This document shows positions 698 through 63,025 of a stretch of 64,000 bases of DNA, in pieces. Location: the NCBI GenBank assembly GCA_036785375.1, contig JAWMAR010000024.1, positions 4,774,001 through 4,838,000 of the forward strand. The letters are read 5' to 3'. This DNA is from Leucoraja ocellata. Lineage: Eukaryota. Each line of letters starts with the position of its first letter. The stretch's first letter is position 1. A model generated the notes under the pieces. That model was not told the origin of the DNA, made no database searches, and saw only the letters and a list, made by a program, of their open reading frames with translations. The translations under genes and the position numbers were made by a program.

Positions 698-2699
698 CAG
701 CATCCCTGGAGAATCTGGATAGACGATGTTTTTCGCGTCAGGACCCTTCTTTAGACTGCAGAAGTGTCCCGATCTGAAATGCCACCTATCCATCTTTTCC
801 TGGGGATGATGTCTGACCTGCTGATTTACTCCAGCGCTTTGTGTCTTCCCACCTCCATCTAGATGTTCAATGATAGAATGACACAGCACTCCACCATAAG
901 GTCTACATCAGCCGGCTCTTTGAAAGAGCTCTACTCTGAGTCCTACTCCTCAAATCCCTGAAAATGTACTGCCATTGAAAGACACTGTTGAATTTTGCTT
1001 CCACTGTCCTTTGAGCACGTGTGTTGTGGAACATTTAGAGGAGATTTGCTGGTAATTAGATTTAAAATACTGGCCCGTGACCGAATCCATTGAAATGAAG
1101 TTAGTTGGTCATCGCAGTTTAGTGGGTGAGCTGGGGGTTAGTTAAGCAGCCTCAATAATGGGCCAGTGCGATTAGTCATCATTAAGGGGATACTTAGAGC
1201 AACTTGTGAAGCAGAGAAGTGTAATCGGTTGGAGTGCAAGAGTTTCTCTGCAGCTAAAGGCTGGGGAGACAGGGGCACCAAGCTGTGGCAGGCCTCAGCA
1301 GTGGCAGACGGATGGCACAGCAAAATGCTGGAGGAACTCAGCAGGTCAGGCACCATCTGGGAGGGCAATGGACAGGCGACGTTTTGGGTCAGAACCATTC
1401 TTCAGCCCATTGCAATATATATATATATTTTTTTGCAATGAGGGCAATGCTGGCATTGCATACCAAGAACGCAGGAGGCAATGCCCGAAAGGAGACCAGA
1501 TTTTCTACCCTAAGTGGAACTGTGACCAGTTTATTGAATCGCAGATAGTTAATCTGAATTCTAGTTCTTAATATGCCACAGATGACTTGCAACCTCTGGA
1601 TTATTAGGTCAAGCTTCTGCGCTGAGGCCCCAGTCACACAACACTAGATCACCGCTCCCATTGATTATGTAGAGAGCATTCTGATTAAGATGGATCGGTA
1701 GACATAGACGACGCGGGCAAAGTCAGAAAGAGAGAAACAAAGAAAATACCAGGGTGACAGAGAGATAGGAACAGTGTTTGAAAGCTAAGGAAACAGAAAT
1801 AAAGAGACGAATAGATATTTCTTTGGAGAAACTGTGCAAAATTTGATAGAGAAAGAGAAAAGAAAATGGAATAAATCCTGCACAACACACAGCGATGATG
1901 TATTGGATCACAAATGGCTGATTAGCGAATACAGGAAGACAAATTTACCAATCGAAAGAATCTCCAAATGGCAAACCTGCAACTGGAGTAAAATTTAATA
2001 ACCTGCGGCTCGACTGCAGTGTAAAGAACAGCTTTCATTTACTGAGCGGGGATGTGTTTTTTTAGAATACAACGCAAATCGTTGAATCTGATCAATTGGC
2101 ACTGTGAGGAAATGGAAAGCGATTAAAGGCTAAAGTTGTGATGATCACTGGTTTAACACATGGAGATGGAAACTGCTGAATTAGTTCAGTTCATTAAAAT
2201 CATTAATAGTCATGAAATGAAAACCACTTGAGTACAAAGGCTTGAGAATCTATCCGTTTTAATTAGGTGCCAGCAAATCTGAAGTGAAACGCAAGCCTAC
2301 TAGTCGCACATACTTTACAAAGCAACTACTCCTCTCCACAGATCAGTAGGATCTCAATTAAAATTTTGTTTTAATTAAAATTGATCGCATTAAGAAACTG
2401 ATGTGCTTAATTAACTGAATTCCAGGAGTTCCTTGAATGTTTTACGGCTGCATTGTACCATCATTGTTCAGCGTAATAAATAAACCACACTGGAGAATTG
2501 GGTTTCAAACGAACATCTCCAAGTTCTGTTCAATCAAGTTTGTTGCAACTTTTCAAAGTTTTAACACGTCTAACTTGTTTGTCCTGGTGCAGATATCAGT
2601 TGAGAAGGATTGCTGATAACAGCAGGTCAAAGATATCTCAGGCAGACATTCCTGGGAAAGCCATGACATGTGGTTTCATGTAATATCCTACATCTCTGT

Positions 2700-3016
2700 T
2701 AGATGTTGTCAAGCTGGAAAAGGGCGCAGAGAGGATTTATGAGGATGTTGCTTGAGCTATAGGGAGCGGTTGAGCAGGCTAGGACTCTATTCCTTGGAGC
2801 GCAGGTGGATGAGAGGTGATCTTATCGGAGTGAACAAAACCGTGGGGGGAATAGATCGGGTAAACGCACAGAGTCTCTTGCTCAGAGTAGGGGAATCGAG
2901 AACCAGAGGACATAGTTTTAAGTTGGGGGGGGGGGGGGGGGGAAAGATTTAATAGGAACCTGAGGGTGGCGGGTGTATGGAATGAGCTGCTGGAGGAGGT
3001 GGTTGAGGCAGGTACA
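2700..3016 (+). mobile_element. CR1-like LINE fragment
   Basis: SYRERLSRLGLYSLERR...RTRGHSFK. Confidence 0.85.
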
Positions 3017-5529
3017 GGTATTGTTGTGGTGTACATTATTTACAATATGTAAATATCCATCATCCACAGCAACGTGCTAGGTACAAAAAAACTAGAACTG
3101 AACTGTAGTGTTGATCCTACATTTCGTTGCCCATGTCTCACACAACACCCGATTAAGTAGATGATGTTAGCTGCTCATTGAGTTAGTAGACATTGTTTGT
3201 TGTGATTCCTGAGGCAAGGCTGACTCGATCTCCGATTTACTGTACTGCCGTCAATTCTAACTTCATATACAAAATTACATTCTGTAACTGGGGACAAAAT
3301 GCTCATCTGAAGACATTTCTTCATGGCAGCACAGTGGCTTAGTTTAAATTAGTTTAGTTTAGTTTGTTTAGGGATACAGCATGGAAATAGGACTTTCGAC
3401 CCAGCAGGTCCAACCCGACCATTGATTGCCCACACACTTGTTGCATGTTACACCACTTTCACATTCGACACTCTTGGGGCAATTTACAGAGGCCAATTAA
3501 CCTACAAACCTGCACATCTTTGGAATGTGGGTAGAACCCGGAGCGCCCGAAGAAAACCCACACGGTCACAGGGAGAATGCGCAAACTCCGCACAGACAGC
3601 ACCCGAGGTCAGGCTCGAACCCGGGTCTCCGGAGCTGTGAGGTTAGTTGCTGACTTACAGTGCCAGAAACCCGGATTCCATCCTGACCTCGGGTGCTATC
3701 TGCATGGAGTTGCTTCATTCAACCACATGGGTTTTCTCCAGGTGCTCCGGCTTCCTCCCACACTCCAAAGATGTGCAGATTTGTAGGTTAATTGGCTTCT
3801 GCAAAATTGTCTCTAGTGTGTAGCATAGAACTAGTGTACAAGTGATCGCTGGTTGGCACGGCTCGGATCTGTGGATGCTTGTTTAAACCAAAGGCAGACA
3901 CAGAGTGTTCGAATAACTCAGCGGGTTAGGCAGCATCTCTGAAGAAAAAGGATTGGTGACGTTTCGGATTGGGATCTTTCTTCAGACTGGGGGTGAGATT
4001 AGAGTAGAGCTAAGAGTCAAGAGTTATTCTACTACCCTGACCTACTCCAAACAGCAAACTTGTCCACGGTGTCAAACCACATAAAAAGTTTGTTTCAACA
4101 TCTCCAAGACATGGCACGGACAATCTCATGCACAACCAATGTTTGATGCAAACTAGGAAACAGCCTGTAGGATCCATAGACAAGTTTGCAGAAGATGATT
4201 CCCAGATCAACAGTCACGGAGCACTTGAGCAGTTGGAAACAACAAAGAGTTTCAGCAAAAGATAATCTGAGTCGTTGGGGGAGATGTTGTAGAGTTAACA
4301 ATAGACAGCCTTTGTGATGAAAGGATATAGGGTGGGAAATTCAGATCAAGATCAAATATGACATCAGAATTCTTAGTGGCACAAAATGCTGGAGTAACTC
4401 AGCGGGTCTCTGAAGAAAAGAAATAGGTGATGTTTCGGGTTGGAGCCTCGTCAGACTGAAAGAAGGGTTCTGACCCAAAATGTCTTCCAGTCTGATAAAG
4501 AGTTCTGACCTGAAACTTCACCTATTCCTTTTCTCCAGAGATGCTGTCTGACCCCGTTAAGTTACTCCAGTATTTTGTGTCTATCTTCAGTGGAAACTAT
4601 TATCTGCAGTTCCTCCTACACTGCTGATAGGGAGAGGTTGGGCTGGGCATAACTTTATTCCTTGAACCATCGGAGACTGATGGGTGATCTTATAGAGGTG
4701 TATACTATCATGAGAGGAATAGATAAGGTAATGCACACAATCTTATACCCAGGATTGGGGAAACGAGAACTATAGGGCAGAGGTTGATGGTGAGAGGGGA
4801 AAGAAGGGTTCCAACCCAAAATTCCATCACAAATTCTTTTTCTCCAGAGACGCTGCCTGACCCGCTGAGTCAATCCAGCTTTTTGTGTCTATCTTCGGTA
4901 TAAACCAGCATCTGCAGTTCCTTCCTACACAGATTGCTGAGTGGTCTGGTCTGAGCAGCAGGGATGTTGAGAAGGAAAACAATTATTAAGGCTTCTTGCA
5001 GGAACTCTGCGCCCAATCATTTAGTAACCTCGGACTAAAATAGGAAATACACTTGCACACAGTAGCATCTTGTTCATCGACAGAACCTTCCCCATTATTA
5101 AATCCACAAGTGGTTTTAGTCATTGTGAAAGATGTGAGGGGAGCATGACCCTAGACAGTAAAAATGCTCGTAAAATAAAATATTCTTGTTTGGAAATACA
5201 GCATCTGACTTCTCCTTGATAACATTATGAACCAGAGGCATAAAGCAACAGCACTGACAGCTTCAGTATTACATGGTGCATGTACTCCCTTCCTTCTTGC
5301 CGATAAACCACATGCCAGCGCTGCCCAGCCACTGGGGCATTCGCTGCCATGGAATGCCAACATTAAGAGTGGGTAAAGTGAAACTAACCAACAATGGGGC
5401 CTTGCATTTATACAGCAGCTTAAACGTGGCAGAATATCCCAAGAATCTTCACAGGACCTTCATTAAAAAATAGTTGAGTCAGATAGTAATATTAGAACGG
5501 ACAGGAAAATGGAAGGTTTTAGAATATAA

Positions 5530-40302: not shown

Positions 40303-42698
40303 AGTTCTTTCCGACCCACTGTGTCAATTTTGTTGGGAAATGAGTTAGATACACCCATTAGTTCAACTGGCAAAATACAAAGTGCCAGAGGAACGCGGCA
40401 GATCGGGCAGCATCGGTGGAGGGAATGGACAGACAAGGTTTCAGGATGGGACCCTTCTATAGGCTAGAAATGACAAATGCCTGGCAAGTCATAGGTGAAT
40501 ACAGGTGAGGAGAGTTTTATTGGCAGATTGAGAGGAGCAAGTGACAAATGCGAGAAGTGTAAAGGCTAGAGGTCTTTCCCAGCTTTCTTCACCCCTAATG
40601 CAATCTGTCTGAAGAAGGGCACTGGCCCAAACCGTTGTCTGTCCATCCCCTGCACTGATGCTGCCTGACCCACTGAGTTACTCCAACACTTCATGTTTTG
40701 TTCAAGATCCCAGCATCTACAGTTCCTTAATAGTACCTCTATTAGTTTACCTGTGTTTTTCTGACCATGCAATACAGCACAGGACCATGTTATTAGATTC
40801 AACTTACCCCAATTGCTTGCATATGATTTATATCTCTCCATTCCCTGCATGTTCATGTGATAGGGACAGAATTAGGCCATTCGGCCCATCGTCTATCCGC
40901 CATTCAATCATGGCTGATCTATCGTTCCCTCTCCACCTCATCCTCCTGCCTTCTCCCCATAACCCCCGACGCCCATGCTAATCAAGAAGCTATCAACCCC
41001 TGCCTTCAAAATATCCATTGACTTGGCCCCCACAGCCTTCCGCGGCAATGAATTCCACAGATTCACCACCCTCTTGCATTTGTTCACGTGTCTGTTAAAA
41101 TGCCTGACAAAACATCACGAAAATCGCATGTTTAAAAGAGATGCAAAAGAAATCAAACCTGTAGACAGGCTGAAAATGATGCCTCTTTAGAATTAAAGGA
41201 TGATAGAAACCTAGAGAGTACTGGAGGCATCCCCTTGGTCTATCAATTCTGTACCAACCCTTTCAAAGATCAGTCCCACATGTCCAATTGCATACCCTAT
41301 GGCGGATACTGTGCTTTTTTTCAAGTACTTATTGAATTTCCTTTTAACAGCTACAACTGAATCCCTATCCATTACCCTTCCAGAATTACAGTATATTCAC
41401 AGCTTGAACCACTTGCTGGATGAGCTTTACTTCATATTGACTTTGGTTCTTTTGCCAATCAGTATAAATCTGGTTATTGCCTCCTGAGTTTCTCTTTGCC
41501 TTTGTCAGAAGTTACGTCATGTTTTGTGAACAAAGGAGTCTTGTATTATTCTTTGAAGGCGAGGCAATGCAAAAAGACTAAGCGTGTTACTGCAATTCAT
41601 ATTTAACCTTGCGATGACAATAGATGTGGAGGTTGGATTCATCCACTGTCATGAATTGGTTATGTTTGAATGCAAATGCTGTTCATGGTTTAAAGAAGAA
41701 ACAGTGGGGCGGGGGTGGGGGGAGAGGGGAATGGAAAGGAGAAGAGAGGAGGAAAGGGAGGGGGGTGAAGGAAAGGACACTGGAAATGAAGGGAAAGATG
41801 AAATGGAAAGGGATTGAGGAGAGAAGGGATGAAATGAGTAAAAAAATGTGGGAAAATAAATGAGGGAAGGAGAAGGAAGCCGATGAGATAAGCCATGGAA
41901 CCAGGCCCTTTGGCCCACATGTCCTAATCGCCCATCATCCAAGCCATCATTTACACTAATCCTACACTAATCTAATTCAGGTTTTTTCTCTCCATATTGT
42001 TATCAATTCCCCCCCCTCCCCCCAGATTCTACCACTCAATCACACGCTAGGAGCACTTTACAATGGCCAATTAACTTGGTGGGCCAAAGGGCCTGTTTCC
42101 ATGCTGCATTCTTAATCTAAACTAAACTAACCTATCGATCCCCCGTGTCTTTGGGATGAGGGGGCGAAACAGGGACACCCGACTGATTCTACACTCTCCA
42201 TGAGCCTTGTTAATTCTGGAGAGCTTGGTGAATAACAAAGAGAGTACATTCATAAGATGAACACTGATTAGGGACATTATACTATGAACCCCAAATCACA
42301 CCACTATGTGTGACCTTAAATCCATTAGATACTCATATCATATCTCCAAACCCCAAGGCAGATTTTCAACAGCAGCCTACTCCCACATCACCTTTCGCAC
42401 ATCTTGCAAAGTCAAGTGTTAAAGAAACAATCAGTGGTTTTGTTTCTACTGATTTCTCATTTTTAGGATCAGGAATTGTTTAAAATTAAAGTGTGCTATG
42501 ACAACAAAAAATGTCATTTTACAATAGGTCACGTTATGTATTTGGATGAAGATTGTGTGTGGACAGGCTATTAATTAGTGTACTGGACAACATAAACCAG
42601 GCTTTCTATTCCTTGCTCTGGACGATAAAGCCCATTAATTTGAGGGGCACTATGTATGTTAAGGCAATTTTTCATCTGCTTGTCAATATAGGGCCAAC

Positions 42699-42849
42699 CT
42701 GCTCTGGTCATGAACGGCTCCCCTTGAGAGACGCACACCAACATGTCTCGTTCGACTCGTTCCCACGAGGTGATCTGCTCTCCGTCAGGGCTGTAGAGGC
42801 ACTTGGCTGCAGATCGCAGCTTCAGGCGGGCTGTGCAGTTCTCCAGCAG
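42699..42849 (-). CDS. DCDC1: DCDC1 coding exon, last DCX-like domain (LLENCTARLKLRSAAKCLYSPDGEQITSWERVERDMLVCVSQGEPFMTRA)
   Basis: ttctacag acceptor, CAG|gttggc donor, 151 bp (phase 0 to 1). Matches human LLQDCSSRLKMTHPARALYTPSGEPIQSWDDIERDMVICVSMG (recalled). Translated by hand. Confidence 0.94.
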
Positions 42850-44819
42850 CTGTAGAACAGAAAGAACATTAGTTTAGTTTAGTTTAGTTTATTGTCACGT
42901 GTACAGAGTGAAAAGTTTTTGTTGCGTGCTAACCGGTCAGAGGAAAGACTATACATGATTACAATCGAATCATTCACAGTGTACAGGTACATGGTAAAGA
43001 GAATAACTTTTAATGCAAGGTAAAGTCCAGTAAAGTCTGACTAAAGATAGTCCGAGGCTCTCAAGGGAGGTAGATCGAAACTCAGAGCTGCTCTCTAATA
43101 AGAAGGTTCAGTTGCCTGAAGTTGGAGGTGTGCATCTTAGTTTATTTAATGTCCCATGTAAAAGGTGTTGCCAGCAACAACACATCATCACCTGGGTACA
43201 TCACTGATGTTACAGCCGAGATTTTGTCTGTAGGTCTCTGGATTCAGGCTGAATATTTTCCCTCAGGCATGAGATTATTTGCACTGTATATTGCACAGAA
43301 CAACAGTTTACACACATATTCTAACCGGAGAAAATTTTAATATATGTTGGCCTTTTATTATCAACAGTTTTTGAGCCACACCTGAGTCACATAGTGATTC
43401 TATTGTTGGTTATCCAATGTGTAGATAAACCAGACAATTCAACATAGTTATACCAGGTCATTTAACGTGCAGTTAAACCAGGGCGTTTAACTCTGTCTTT
43501 CTGATGTTGCTGTGAACTGAGGTCCCACAAGGTAGAAGATGCCTGCACTCTGTCTACTCCATCCAACTGGTGTCCCAAATGCTCACATGTGTATGCAAGC
43601 TATACATGGGTCATGCATTCGTAACTGGGGAGAACCTGTAGTAACCTATGTTGTTCCATGATTGAGCAGACACAGATAGTCATCTACACCGTACTCAATC
43701 ACAACTGATGCCCTCGGTAATCTCTACAACCTCTAGTCCCAGCTGGGCAGGACGTGCCTGGCATCATGGGAGGGTGGCTGGTTACATCTCGAGGAACACT
43801 CTTGAGATTCTCAGCATCATTCCAAACATTTGTCTCTACTTTGAGAAGTTCGTGGTGTAGAGGCTCTCAAGAGTCAGTGCAGATGTTTCAGCTTCTCAAG
43901 GAGGCTTTCATAATATCGTTGTATCTTTTCCCCTGCTCACATGGTCATCTTTTCACCTAATAGAGCATAGAAGGGGTGTCTTTTTAGCACGCAAGCCTTG
44001 CCACAATGAATGGGTGTCTGCGTGGTTATCGTGGGGCCCTACTTTGGTCTGGTATTGTCTGTGGGCACCACTGGGGAGTGTGCAAAGATCATCCCTAGAT
44101 TTCCCGTAAAGGTCAGATTCAAGTGATTTGAATGTCTCAGACCTAGACTTGCAACAGAAAAGGCTCCACTATCGTACTGGAGCCCATGCAACTGGATCCT
44201 GACCCAGATCTGTCCAGAACCGTGTGGTGGCTGTCTGTGCACCAGTCTCCCCACGTTAAACAAAGTCACGCACAGGCGTCCTCCCAACTGAGGAAGTCAT
44301 ACCAGTTTCGAGTGACTGCCGATGATGATGAGACTTCAATAGGGGGTTGATCTCATGGTACATCCATGGTTTCCAGCTGCGAACATTGAATTGACATACA
44401 GTCTTCTAGACACTAAATGATGAAGCCTGTGACAGCACTGGCTTGCCCTGGTGAGTCCTTGACCAGTCCTTGCTATTTCAACATCCTTTCCCATTCCCAC
44501 AACAATCTGTCCAACCTCAGCCTTCTCTACTACCAGGGTAAGGCCCAAACTGGAGGATGTTGGGCATCACATTCAGTAGTCTACAACCCGATGGTACAAA
44601 TATTGCACTGTCCAATTTTAGGTAAACCTTCCCCCTCTTCTGATCCTCCGCCACTTCTCCTATTTATGTCCCCTTTCCCATATTCCTTCCTCTTGCCCAC
44701 CATTACCTATTTTCTTCCCCCTCTCCCTCCAATTTCTGTCCACCAACTTCATACACAACTTACTCACCAGCTTCACCCCACTCCTCTCCACTGACCCTTC
44801 CACCCTCACCCTCTGCATC

Positions 44820-49878: not shown

Positions 49879-50858
49879 CTAAGAGATAGAGGAATCATTC
49901 AGTTAATACATCATGTCCATATTATGTGTGCACAGTCAATATACCATTTGCATTCAGAGAATGTGAAGCAGCAAAATGTCCAAGGTGAGAATTTTGGAGA
50001 TATTTCTCTTTTCCATATGTGGATGAAGGCCAGTGAAGGCCTTGCATTTGTTTAGAATTTAGAGATACAGCGTGGAAACATCCCCATCAGCCCTCAGGGT
50101 CCACACCGACCATCGATCACCTGTTCAAACTAGTTCCATGTTATCCCACTTTCTACACACTAGGGTCAATTAGCAGAAGACAATTAACCTACAAACCTGC
50201 ACGTCTTTGGAATGTGGAAGAAAACCTGCACGTCTTTGGAATGTGGAAGAGATCCGGTTTTCCGGAGGAAACCCATGTGGTCACTAGGAGAATGTGCAAA
50301 CTCCGCACAGGCAGCGACTGTAGTCAGCATTGAACCGGGTCGCTGCTGCCCCTTGCACACTTGTAGAACTCAAATATAATCCAGATATCCCAAACCACTT
50401 TACGGCAAATTAGGTACTTTAAAAAGAGATGTTAAAATAGTGATAGCAAACTGTGTTTATAACCCTTGGCCACTGTCTGGTGTGTCAGGAAGAGATGCCA
50501 AACATAACATTAGAAATAAGATATCGAAGCAGGAGCAGCCTTTGCGTTCCCTGTGTCTACTCCACCATTTGATATGATTATAGCTGAACTTACACCTCAG
50601 TATTTCTACTTCCAAAAATCGAGTTAATACTACTTTATAGTGTTTGGTGTGTGCCTGGAACAGGGGAGAGATGGTGGAGGCAGATTCGGCAGTGCCATTT
50701 AAAAGGCTATTGAATAGAGACATGGATATTTATAGTCACATATGTTAATTATTAACACAGAGAAATCATTTACTTTACAAATTGTCCAGTAATCACCATA
50801 CCCCCGATCCTCAATTAGCAAGTGTACATGACTAATCTACTGAGCGGCATGAAGTTTG

Positions 50859-53800
50859 CAGGGCTGCCAACATTGGTTGAGAGTTGGTAGTGAGAAATTG
50901 CGAGAGACTGAGGTGGGTGGGGGGGGGGGGGGGGTAGGATGTGGGAGGGGGGGGTGTGTCCCCTCCCATTGGTATGGAGTTTTTGCATTTCTCAGTTTGA
51001 AATTGTGCAATCTGGTGCTTACTGTAGCGAGTCTTAAAACTTACACTTGAATGCAATATTTATGCTTTAAATTGGATTAGCTATGAATAAGGTTAGGCTA
51101 AATTACATTCCTAATTACATTCAACAGTAGAGCCAGACTCTGATCAACAGGTGCAGCACATGAAAGATCTTAGTATATTCATGTATGGAAATCAGATTAT
51201 AATCAAACACTTGGCCCATGTTGACCAACCTGGGTCTCACTGCACACCTGGTACTACCCCTGACCCTGAGTCCAGTTGCATACCTTCTCTTATTTTGACC
51301 CTGAGTCCAGTCTTACACCTGGCCCCCTATCCTACCCTGATCCCAGTGTTGAACACTCCCATTGTCCCAGCTTTGACTGCACACCTAGTATTATTCCAGA
51401 CCTTGACTCTGGATGCACACTTTGCCTTGCTCCTAATCCCTCTGCACTGACAATATATCTGGCCCAAACATAAAGCCCCATATCTGACCCCCTGGACTTA
51501 ACCTATTATGTTCAAGTCCACAGGTGCTTATCTAATGCGGTAATCTTTTATGCTGCACTTCACAGACCAAATTTTGCATAACAAAATTTGCTACATCCAT
51601 TGCATTCCTTGTTATCTCATATGCTAGTTACTTTGTCAATTGGTTGAACACAATTTCTCATCCATAAAATTATACTCACTCAGCTGTATAAGTATTCTGT
51701 TACCATTTCCTTCATTTTCCTAACAAACTGACCTGAAGTCATTTTCACCCCCAATATTTTCAGTATTTTGCCGTCTTCCTCTCAGCTGGGACTTTTCCGA
51801 AATGCAAAGTCCAATGACTATATATATTTAAGCAATATTATTCTATTAAATGTGATCTTGAGAGTACATAATATTTTCTGTGGTATTCATAAGACAACAA
51901 TGATAAAAACATCTTTGTTTTGATTGCACCTACCAACATGCATACATTATTATATTAAGTTAATAAGTACCGAGGGGAAATATTTGTTCCAATGCTTCAG
52001 ATTCCCAACTACATTTACATTGAAGTGATTGAAATCCAAGTGGTTGAAGTCAGTATCAGCACAATTACTATATTAAACTTTGAATCTTCAGATGTCCTGG
52101 TTCAGGCTAAAACTAACAACAAATAATAACCTCTTCAAATGTTCCCCTGTAAGTATCTCTGTCACTCCTTTAAATATGCCCCTTCTTTGAACAAGCTCTT
52201 AAACATCGCATCTGAATCAGTTGCAATCTGATTACATTCTTTGAGGATGTTCATCCGCGTGTTCAATTAATAAAACAATGAGATTGGGGACATTTCTATT
52301 CAACCTGTCATAGGAATTTTGGGGGGGGTAGAAATAGTCAGTGAGGTAAAAACAAAATTATAGTTAAGTGGCAAATGACAATAGTGCTGCCTTCCCAATA
52401 TTTAACTGAAGGAAATAATGGATTATCGGGACAGTACGTTGTGACAGACAGCCTGACACCAAGCATGTCATTTTAATATTACACTTATCCCATCCCCTGG
52501 ATATTCCAGATTAATAAATAAAGGTTTTGGCAACTAATTACAAATCAGGCTAATTACAAATCAATAACATTAGCCAACTCTGAAACACGAAGCGCTGAGC
52601 ATTGGGATCCAGACATCACGGACATCTGGCCTCAGTACTCGCTCACATCTGTCTGAACCAGGGGCCATGGAGCGTTTTTGAAAGTGGGGAGACTGACTGA
52701 TCACTGGCCTTGGGGGTACCCGACGAGGGAGTGGAGCAACTGAGTGGGGAGAGGGTGTGGGAGGTAGGGACATTTTCAAATTTGTTGTATTAAAATCATG
52801 TTTTAGTGCATTGTAGAAGTATTATTTCAATGTTTTTTGTTTGTAGTATTTTTACGAGGTAACTTTTTAAAGGGTAACTTTTTCCACACAAAGGGTGGTG
52901 GGTGTATGGAACAAGCTGCCAGAGGAGGTAGTTGAGGCAGGGACTATCCCAACATTTAAGAAACAGTTAGACTGATACATGGATAGGACAGGTTTGGGGG
53001 GGATATGGACCAAAAGCAGGTAGTGTAGCTGGGACATGTTGGCTGGTGTGGGCAAGTTGCGCCAAAGGGCCTGTTTTCACACTGTATCACTCTATGACTA
53101 CATTATACCTCCACCATGCATGAATGCTTCACAATTAAGCATGGTCACGTTTTATTACCATATACTCAAGCTTAGAAACATAGAAAATAGGTGCAGGAAT
53201 AGGCCATTTGGACCTTCGAGCCAGCACTGCCATTCAATTTGATCATGGCAGTTCATCTAAAATCAGTACCTCTTTCCTGTTTTTCCCCATATCCCTTGAT
53301 TTCGCTCCAGGAGCTAAATGTAACTCTCTCTTGAAAACGTGCAGTGAATTGGCCTCCACTGCCTTCTGTGGCAGAGAATTCCACAGATTCACAACTTTCT
53401 GGGTGAAGAAAGTTTGTCCTCATCTCAGTCTTAAATGGCCTACCCCTTATACTTAAACTGTGACCCCTGGTTCTGAACTTACCCAACATCGGGAACATTT
53501 TTCTTGCAGTTAATGTAAGTGAAAATCTTGCAGGCAAGCAGGATGCTTTCTCCAACCACCCCCATTTAAGGCCACTATCTACCACCATTTCTACCCAATG
53601 CTTGGTACTTAGTTCCAGCAGCCACTGGTTGTCCTCCAGGATGCACTGAGCCTCAGGCTGGTCTATGCCGGTCACCAGGGCGAATTCGGCACAGACACTC
53701 TCACGGCTGCGGCGCAACGCTTCCAACGACTCCGACGGCCTGGGACTCTTGCACTGAGGCTGCTCCATGGCTGGAGCTGCAACGAGCGACTCGCCAGCCC

Positions 53801-54063
53801 GGCTAACAACCGCCAGCCCGGCAAACATTCGCCAGCCCTGGCTCCCCATTCGCATCTGCCCCCGCCGCTGCTTCTGCTTCCATCCCTCCCTCAGCACCGG
53901 CTCTCCAACACCCACGCCCCATGCAGTTGATATGCGTTTTAAATTGTCGTTGATCACAGAACTTCTCACGACAGAGCGTAGAAATTTGTGATCAGCGTGT
54001 GAGCATGAGAATTTGGCCAAATGCGTGATTCTCACGCTCAATGCTTGTGCGTTGGCAGCCCTG
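50859..54063. mobile_element. TIR-bounded non-autonomous DNA transposon carrying cargo
   Basis: Perfect 13-bp TIRs cagggctgccaac/gttggcagccctg. Direct repeat agtttg on both flanks (50853-50858, 54064-54069). The two flanks join into a SINE V-domain sequence. Confidence 0.75.
53613..53768 (-). pseudogene. TDP2: Orphan TDP2-like first coding exon (N-terminal UBA-like segment), 52 codons
   Basis: gccATGG start. MEQPQCKSPRPSESLEALRRSRESVCAEFALVTGIDQPEAQCILEDNQWLLE resembles human TDP2 RRLLCVEFASVASCDAAVAQCFLAENDWEME (recalled). Followed by CTAAGT, not GTAAGT. GC/CpG-rich. No further TDP2 exons found in the window. Confidence 0.7.
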
Positions 54064-54541
54064 AGTTTGTACATTCTCCCTGACTGTGTGGGTTTTCTCC
54101 GGGCGCTCCGAATTTCTCCTGCATTCCAAAGACATGCAGGTCTGCAGGTTAATTGGCTTTGGTAAAATTGTAAAATTGTCCCTAGTGTGTAGGATAGTAC
54201 TAGTGTACGGGGATCGTACGGACTCGGTGGGCCAAAGGGCCTGTTTCTGCGCTGTATCTCAACATTAAACTAAATTAAACTATTACATCTTGACCGTCTA
54301 TCCTGAAGAAATAAGTAGACCCTCAATTTATCACTTAATCTTGATAATAACATTCCACTTGCAACAAAATATTTGTGGAATATCCGTCTAGATTATGTCC
54401 GCAGTCTTGGAGGGTGACTTTGAATCTCAGCCTTCAGATGTAGATATGTGAAGTACCAGCTGAGTTAAACTGACATCGAGTTGCATGATCATGTCGCTTA
54501 GTGTCTTGAATGGGGACAGAAGCAATGGAAGGCCCACCTAC

Positions 54542-61807: not shown

Positions 61808-62859
61808 CTAGTAGTGAGGAAAAGGAGGGGAGAAATTATCTGCTCAACATTCGCCGGAAGTATACAAGAAAAGTTACTCCACGCAGTTTCTGACCTAGAA
61901 CCATTCCACGAGCCCTCAGGATGGTGGTGTAACTGCAAACAATCAAGCATTGCCCTGCCAGGTTTCCGAACAGCCCTTCCATTAACTAGGCTACTGTTTG
62001 ATTAACCTCCTGCCTCATTGAGGACATTGGACTTTGTCCAAAGAACTGATGCGCTACAATGCATTACAATGCTGAGAACTATATTCTGCATTATGTATGT
62101 GTTACCCTCTGCTCTATCTATTATACTTGAGTTTGACATATATTATGGCACATTTGATCTGTTTGTATAGTGAGCAAAGCAACGCTTTGAATATAAAACT
62201 GCACATTAAGGACATCCCATTATTAGACCTCCACCACCCTCAGTACAGAGAATTTCAGAGAGAAACTACTCTCTGAGAGAAGATGTGTCAATGTTTTAAA
62301 TGCTGAGACTTTTATAGAACATTGAATGTTGATCAGTACAGCACAGGAACAGTCACTTCACTCCATGATGTCTGTGCCGTCTATGATGCTAACATAAATT
62401 AATCCCCTCTGCCCATGCATGGTCTATATGCCTCCATTCACTGCCTCTTCATGTGCCTAAATGCCTCTTAAACATTGCTGTTGTATTTGCTTCCACCACT
62501 TCCCTTGCCAGTGTGTTCCGGGCACCTACCACTCTCTGTGCATCTGCTTGGCCCACATATCTCTTTTAAGCTTTCCCCTTTGATCGCAGAAACAGGAATA
62601 GCACGCAAGTTTCACATCGATAGAGCCAGAACTCGAGATCAAACCTGGGTCACTGTAGCTTTGAAAAATCAACACTAGTTATTCTACTGCCCTAGTTCTA
62701 CCACATCCCAAGGCAAGTTCCTAGGTGTAGCCCAGAGGCAATGGATTGGACCATAAAATGCCATTGCCCAAGACATTAGAGGCAATAAATTGTATGTTAA
62801 ATCATACTGATAACATTTATTTGGTCTCTCCCTGTTGATCATTCCCTTTGGCTTCCTAC

Positions 62860-63025
62860 CTTTGTTTTCTTTAGCTTGTCTCCATTCCAGCTCTTTTTCC
62901 TGTGATGTGTCATTGATTCCCCTTGTCACCAGTTCAGCAATAGACAAGACCAGGTTTCCATCAGCGGTGTACAGTCTGCGAGCAGGCCTGGTTAGCTTTA
63001 GTCTTTTAGTACACAGGGCAAGCAA
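62860..63025 (-). CDS. DCDC1: DCDC1 internal coding exon (DCX-like domain: LLALCTKRLKLTRPARRLYTADG...KENK)
   Basis: Acceptor cttgccttgatctag, donor AAAG|gtagga, 166 bp (phase 0 to 1). Peptide resembles human DCDC1 as recalled: LLTECTEQLGLARAASKVYTKDG. Confidence 0.88.

Follow-up and report, generated by a model that had tools for sequence, protein, structure and literature searches.

Terminal inverted repeat (TIR) transposons that carry pieces of host genes, so-called Pack-TIRs, have been surveyed in animals by Tan et al. 2021 (PMC8277862). Among 370 animal Pack-TIRs, 4 are multicopy, a share given there as 1.4%, the worked frog example comprises three copies, and the conclusion is that animal Pack-TIRs are almost all single-copy repair accidents. 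The words shark and cartilaginous are absent from the main text of that survey. In bats, the Helitron HelibatN3 carries the promoter, 5' untranslated region, exon 1 and part of intron 1 of NUBPL in about a thousand copies, and bat Helitrons have made serial captures (PMC4224331). Plant Pack-MULE and Pack-TYPE elements, including Pack-hAT, are non-autonomous, have mosaic interiors and hold gene fragments with introns (PMC8903248, PMC8277862); in the plant Pack-TYPE model, composites arise from neighbouring or nested insertions and are moved by their outermost ends (PMC8903248). Here we describe a family of this general kind from a skate. Our starting point is a copy at 50859-54063 of a 64,000-nt stretch of Leucoraja ocellata (assembly GCA_036785375.1, contig JAWMAR010000024.1, positions 4,774,001-4,838,000, forward strand), which as a whole is called the window and to which all unprefixed positions refer. 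The copy belongs to a high-copy, non-autonomous transposon family with ca. 1 kb of the 5' end of TDP2, and very probably this cargo was taken up by a small hAT-like element, the likely captor, and then amplified by a second, enclosing hAT-like element, the likely spreader.

The skate family resembles the animal Pack-TIRs of PMC8277862 in being a TIR element with host gene sequence inside, in occurring as multiple copies with differing target duplications and in having a GC-rich 5' cargo with its intron kept, derived from a parent locus which is not bounded by the element; hAT is also the commonest carrier in that survey. It differs in its thousands of copies, multicopy cases being rare there, and in a cargo that appears to have moved between TIR families with different duplication lengths. 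Compared with plant Pack-TYPE elements it is found in a vertebrate and carries a single cargo at very high copy number. It shares the vertebrate host, the 5' gene end and the high copy number with the bat Helitrons, from which it is set apart by its TIRs and target duplications. Helitrons are rolling-circle elements that have neither, and a Helitron carrier was rejected on these two grounds. A Pack-MULE was likewise rejected, as the 13-bp TIRs and 6-7-bp duplications stand against the long TIRs and 9-10-bp duplications required (PMC8277862). Our literature search found no earlier description of a TDP2-carrying skate family; among the papers listed, Tan et al. was the sole one on animal Pack-TIRs, one skate preprint mentions neither TDP2 nor hAT, and a search for the TIR motif yielded unrelated work. 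Repbase and Dfam lay outside this search and the family may be catalogued there.

The outer element in the window is bounded by perfect 13-bp TIRs at 50859-50871 (+ strand) and 54051-54063 (- strand), the sole two matches to this repeat in the window even when 2 mismatches are allowed, and by the 6-bp target-site duplication AGTTTG at 50853-50858 and 54064-54069 (both + strand). Both features had been noticed in a preliminary description of this DNA and were found as described, the duplication being 6 or 7 bp across the family. Inside the repeats lie a left arm (50872-51203), common to subfamilies without TDP2, a subfamily interior (51204-52658), of which one 521-bp part returned 1472 candidates at first look, an inner element with the TDP2 cargo (52659-53923), and a right arm with repeated CTCACGC motifs (53924-54050). 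The same description had the flanks rejoining into a single short interspersed element (SINE), which did not hold: the right flank is the 3' part of a SINE and matches SINE copies from AGTTTG onward (49 copies in one search, 124 hits in another), but the left 60 bp match the genome at their own position only, with SINE likeness limited to at most about 11 bases.

The element had been pictured as a lone insertion and proved to be one of a family of thousands. Searches with its right 504 bp returned 3772 first-look candidates, all 40 scored ones matching over at least 469 bases and 39 other places being 85-89% identical, while the left 382 bp returned 2783 candidates. The opposite end lay within range in 12 of 20 right-end and 6 of 15 left-end copies fetched, and complete copies are collinear with the window element, ca. 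3.2-3.4 kb long and 4-7% diverged from their own consensus. Exact outer end motifs occur 1925 and 1291 times in the genome, and a 26-mer across the junction of TDP2 exon 1 and intron 1 occurs 904 times, with no occurrence of the reversed controls in either case. This 26-mer is intact in 20/63 copies, so the 904 exact occurrences correspond to ca. 2,850-3,200 junction copies in the assembly. The assembly is partly haplotype-duplicated, with 6/7 doublecortin-domain loci paired and many loci in general present twice, which inflates the count; the number per haploid genome would therefore be 1,500-3,000.

Copies with the same cargo elsewhere, whose existence the preliminary description had asked about, are numerous and lie at distinct target duplications. 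Among 59 TIR-bounded copies (54 distinct), 38/54 have a target duplication of 6 bp (24 copies) or 7 bp (14 copies) with at most one mismatch, and 23/54 have an exact one, against 0.7 and 0.1, respectively, for shuffled flanks. The TDP2 piece is present in 22/40 left-end loci, drawn from the first 44 listed, and in 17/40 right-end loci from a sample in which loci with other interiors were to some extent preferred. Two or three right ends follow one another in series at about 10 of the 40 left-end loci, the pattern predicted by the plant Pack-TYPE model (PMC8903248). Further, all 30 bins of the window element are covered by RNA reads of organism A and by contigs of organisms D and E, so the family is common to at least three organism labels.

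The captured DNA is read on the - strand and spans 52872-53916 (ca. 1.05 kb). Alignment to the donor resolves it into a CpG-rich TDP2 5' region (53769-53916), exon 1 (53613-53768; 52 codons from the second ATG, encoding a UBA-like domain and ending in phase 0) and ca. 0.74 kb of intron 1 (52872-53612) with two 3' remnants of long interspersed elements (LINEs) in donor order. The splice donor of the window copy reads CTAAGT instead of GTAAGT and has thus lost its GT. The 52-codon peptide (53768-53613) has the TDP2 UBA domain as its top solved-structure match (E 0.0011), the TDP2 structures 6q00 and 4f1i both aligning to it in their UBA region, and has Leucoraja erinacea TDP2 as its top named protein match (70% identity, E 2.9e-12). 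The initial impression of a CpG-rich leader followed by a TDP2-like UBA exon is borne out by these matches.

The donor locus, also sought at the outset, is the TDP2 gene at G000:C127. The remaining TDP2 exons were found at C127:5313139-5345266 only, where the exons show 82-100% identity with the protein of Leucoraja, whereas TDP2 matches outside C127 cover the first 90 residues or fewer. The family consensus differs from the donor by 8.7% substitutions in an alignment that runs through leader, exon and intron and has identical nested LINE junctions; the kept part of intron 1 measures 0.74-0.8 kb, donor LINE junctions included. The donor has a further in-frame ATG 32 codons upstream, a start that the Amblyraja protein shares; in the window copy this ATG is out of frame. 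Since the intron and its nested LINE remnants are kept in donor order, capture took place at the DNA level, and the retained intron rules out a retroposed origin. The earlier reading of a genomic gene-fragment capture by a vertebrate TIR element is therefore upheld as to a non-retroposed, TIR-bounded cargo, though the 13-bp-TIR element is likely not the captor. It had also been asked whether some 2.4 kb of intron-like DNA (51200-53610) match TDP2 intron 1. They do from 52872 rightward only, and the whole of 50859-52871 is without a match in 43.7 kb around the donor TDP2 except for common repeats. As to the source of the interior at 51204-52658, no Pfam match was obtained among 19 frames left of the cargo, and genome searches with its parts were filled by copies of the outer family itself.

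No element arms were found beside the shared span at the donor locus. A doublecortin-domain gene lies 0.2 Mb from the donor TDP2, which fits the DCDC2-TDP2 neighbourhood of mammals. Two further features of the locus were observed. A segment of ca. 57 bp with short inverted ends in the donor's 5' region (L077:2939-2988) is absent from the captured copies; it is likely a post-capture insertion and usable for dating. The outer family is also represented inside TDP2 itself: one of its ends, with a GA-rich tract (L079:580-800, G000:C127:5328580), lies in a later intron, ca. 15 kb from exon 1, and is probably a later insertion.

The structure of the cargo borders points to the inner element as the most likely captor, rather than the element with the 13-bp TIRs. 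In the window, an inner-element end with its arm (52659-52871, terminus CAGGGGCCAYGG) is shortened by a deletion where the arm meets the cargo, and a deletion at a CGCGG microhomology has joined a remnant of the other terminus (53912-53923, - strand; CATGGGCCGCGG in the family) to the cargo, so that both cargo junctions have been trimmed at short shared motifs. The same inner element exists on its own. L069 is a stand-alone element of 1356 bp with its own, different ends and a 5-bp target duplication; it grouped with the donor in a 64-row tree, reaches further into the DNA upstream of the donor exon than the main family and, together with L372, keeps 6 exon-1 bases that other copies have lost. 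When the flanks of L069 were compared with LINE copies as an empty-site check, offsets of 8-10 bases were obtained. Its arm returned 611 candidates, the best 30 of which comprise 15 with private flanks and 15 that all occupy a single site within the outer element. Overall, stand-alone elements measure 1.3-1.5 kb, and among 7 distinct insertions with both ends an exact 5-bp duplication is present in 5. They span donor positions L077:2882-4116 or beyond, compared with 2990-4040 for the window type, i.e., ca. 75-110 bp of extra donor sequence per end, which puts the original capture at no less than L077:2882-4116 (ca. 1.23 kb). In every form examined, an inner terminus adjoins the cargo.

From these structures we infer the following route. 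A non-autonomous element with CATGGGCCGCGG/CAGGGGCCRCGG ends would have acquired a copy of 1.23 kb of TDP2 (C127:5312881-5314115), the probable mechanism being template switching in the course of repair, and would then have transposed. One loaded inner copy would have come to lie within an element with CAGGGCTGCCAAC ends, after which microhomology deletions would have shortened both cargo junctions. A transposase supplied in trans may then have mobilised the composite in a burst, and the copies would subsequently have become methylated and would now be drifting. The order from inner element to nested long form to nested short form is suggested by the structure of the copies.

Both elements look hAT-like, and we consider membership of this group probable. 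The termini are of the short CAGGG/TAGGG type in which animal hAT elements typically end. The duplication lengths agree in part with the hAT5 and hAT6 groups (PMC12730594), which have short TIRs and 5- and 6-bp duplications: the inner element makes 5-bp (5/7) and the outer element 6-bp duplications (24 copies), yet the latter also makes 7-bp ones (14 copies). PMC6004678 deals with hAT-5 and hATm rather than with hAT5. The search for an autonomous partner with PF05699, carried through for the best 150 of 2657 candidates to 30 short and 20 long loci, found neither set of ends. No transposase was found inside a bounded element in 40 right-end loci read 9.6 kb inward, and 124 frames from 8 bounded elements yielded reverse-transcriptase, ALKBH8_N and one Tc1-type DDE fragment only, with no hAT transposase. 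When hAT frames were compared with the elements, the matches listed were of LINE type only. The hAT label thus rests on ends and duplication length. It is rather unlikely, but deserves consideration, that one or both carriers belong instead to another or an unnamed superfamily with 5-7-bp duplications, in which case the capture story would stand unchanged. The near absence of the canonical 8-bp hAT duplication (1/54 distinct outer copies), the mixture of 6- and 7-bp duplications and the missing partner transposase speak for such a carrier, whereas the position of hAT5 and hAT6 within the Blackjack lineage (PMC12730594), the existence of Repbase hAT families with 7-bp duplications (PMC4455052) and the type of termini speak for hAT. 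As a separate observation, dozens of near-identical hAT dimerisation-domain matches, many of them 17-50 kb apart on small contigs (G000 C251, C719, C770, C807, C892 and others), suggest a large tandem repeat unit.

We next consider the fate of the cargo, which is most likely a passenger. In 63 copies with a full exon, exon, leader and intron have diverged to much the same degree outside CpG sites (4.0%, 4.1% and 4.4%, respectively). The ratio of nonsynonymous to synonymous changes in the exon (pN/pS) is 0.81 (p 0.09); 10 of the 63 copies had been selected for protein similarity, a choice biased towards intact copies. The exon is frameshifted in 18 copies and interrupted by a stop in 4, while 35 keep ATG, open frame and GT donor. 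CpG sites have decayed by 25% in the copies against 0/26 in the donor, and the CpG island has decayed like the remainder of the element (27% versus 21-40%). The copy trees are star-like, which agrees with such decay. In RNA of a related species (two runs, 5% of each), depth is ca. 4-25 per strand over the non-LINE interior, with 22/22 and 22/12 on the two strands of the captured exon, which fits passive transcription and is compatible with a few active copies. The copies contain the UBA-coding exon but never the catalytic EEP-domain exons of TDP2, and together with the neutral divergence this speaks against a functional TDP2 paralogue. The preliminary description had drawn attention to the phosphotyrosyl activity of TDP2. 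This suggestion received no support, as the catalytic exons were not taken and the exon evolves neutrally. DDE transposases are not known to form phosphotyrosyl links, and with the catalytic domain absent the chemistry of TDP2 gives no reason for the capture.

That the cargo is instead kept because it is useful, with the CpG island or UBA exon aiding movement or escape from silencing or with copies serving as new first exons, appears improbable. It would account for the TDP2 piece in more than half of the left-end loci sampled, for the 35 copies with ATG, frame and splice donor, and for CpG decay that is uneven among copies beyond chance (p 5e-5), a few such as L067 being nearly intact; bat Helitrons with 5' gene ends also attain higher copy numbers (PMC4224331). 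The equal divergence of exon, leader and intron, the frameshifts, the unprotected island, the similar RNA depth on both strands and the missing catalytic domain argue against it. So do the GA-rich tract that splits the exon in many copies and the lack of a named chimeric protein with the captured exon among 14 and 25 candidates, the latter being a weak test.

Returning to the two-step origin, several observations weigh against it or against its scale. No transposase was found with either set of ends, 2/7 stand-alone insertions are without the 5-bp duplication, and no target duplication bounds the inner element at its site inside the outer one, so that it may have been copied into the outer element or the site may later have been trimmed. 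In a 33-row tree one stand-alone copy branches first (97/94) and another falls among the nested ones, with most of the tree lacking resolution, and a single clade of nested copies is neither shown nor rejected (p-AU 0.052). In addition, haplotype duplication raises the apparent copy number, and pN/pS is slightly below 1 in a sample partly selected by protein similarity. Some of these points would suit a one-step capture, in which the outer element took TDP2 itself and the inner ends are either incidental or a product of later mobilisation: the tree does not require stand-alone copies to be older, the inner element is without a duplication of its own inside the outer one, and the cargo lies ca. 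140 bp from the outer right TIR in most copies. We regard such a capture as very improbable and already largely refuted by the stand-alone copies, which carry their own 5-bp duplications, hold more donor sequence at each end and in two cases keep the undeleted exon, and by the inner terminus that adjoins the cargo in all forms. The reverse direction, a TDP2 first exon that itself derives from the transposon, has nothing in its favour beyond the shared sequence and is refuted by a donor without adjacent element arms or CpG decay and by the UBA region shared with structures 6q00 and 4f1i, which makes exon 1 far older than the transposon family.

Beyond the TDP2-carrying copies, subfamilies without TDP2 have the same outer ends, and some carry LINE, SINE or Tc1 fragments. 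A second cargo (L266:1402-1736, also in L229, L123 and L233 types) has 71% GC, a CpG observed/expected ratio of 0.76, a three-codon mini frame and a GTGAGT splice-donor motif, and looks like the first exon of another gene. Its subfamily has 915 candidates and is present in 9/40 right-end loci. The donor was not found by way of 4 RNA reads, which run from this cargo into a common repeat with 1313 matches. Other variants were also observed. L233 (element ca. 2020-2290), L124 and L103 have a third CpG-rich, CCAAT-containing segment next to a right end, a possible promoter that is either captured or original to the parent element. In L096, L099, L101, L104, L108, L111, L117 and L119, a GA-rich tract of ca. 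0.5-1.4 kb interrupts the TDP2 exon at the point corresponding to window 53685, and a second element end often comes after the tract; the four copies of this subfamily that were included in the tree group together as a younger clade (100/100). Within a 1450-bp element that has outer ends and a 6-bp duplication lies a fragment of a Tc1-type DDE transposase (L321:8770-9135). A wider picture, which we think doubtful, would be a skate Pack-hAT system in which one TIR family serially gathers CpG-island first exons, partly by swallowing loaded transposons (TDP2 and at least one second GC-rich piece), and in which some copies now serve host genes as new promoters or as first exons that extend them in frame by a ubiquitin-binding UBA domain.

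As for the surroundings of the window copy, open frames with DCDC1-type doublecortin exons lie on either side, at 42574-42873 (E 6e-7), downstream of the element as the gene is read, and upstream of it at 62687-63025, where the match (E 1.6e-4) does not reach the curated cut-off. They are 2 of 133 frames scanned at 36-64 kb and are both on the - strand like the cargo, in agreement with the DCDC1 intron setting described earlier, one match being weaker. A 338-codon stop-free frame (53253-54269, - strand) that spans SINE, TIR, TDP2 exon and LINE was rejected as a chance frame, the consensus keeping 142 codons only.

In conclusion, a vertebrate cut-and-paste element can amplify the 5' end of a gene to thousands of copies, a scale for which bat Helitrons have so far been the comparable case, and cargo can probably pass from one transposon family to another. 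The capture route can be reconstructed because stand-alone, nested long, nested short and double-ended intermediates survive. The family points to no new repair function; its value lies in being an unusually large vertebrate gene-fragment capture that decays like junk DNA, rather than a working gene. In maize, silencing of copies has been reported to feed back on the donor gene (10.1101/777037). The skate family represents a natural experiment: one CpG island was placed at thousands of positions, and a quarter of the CpGs have gone from the copies but none from the donor. Two questions thereby become testable in a vertebrate, namely whether an island resists methylation by virtue of its sequence alone and whether silenced copies act back on the donor gene.

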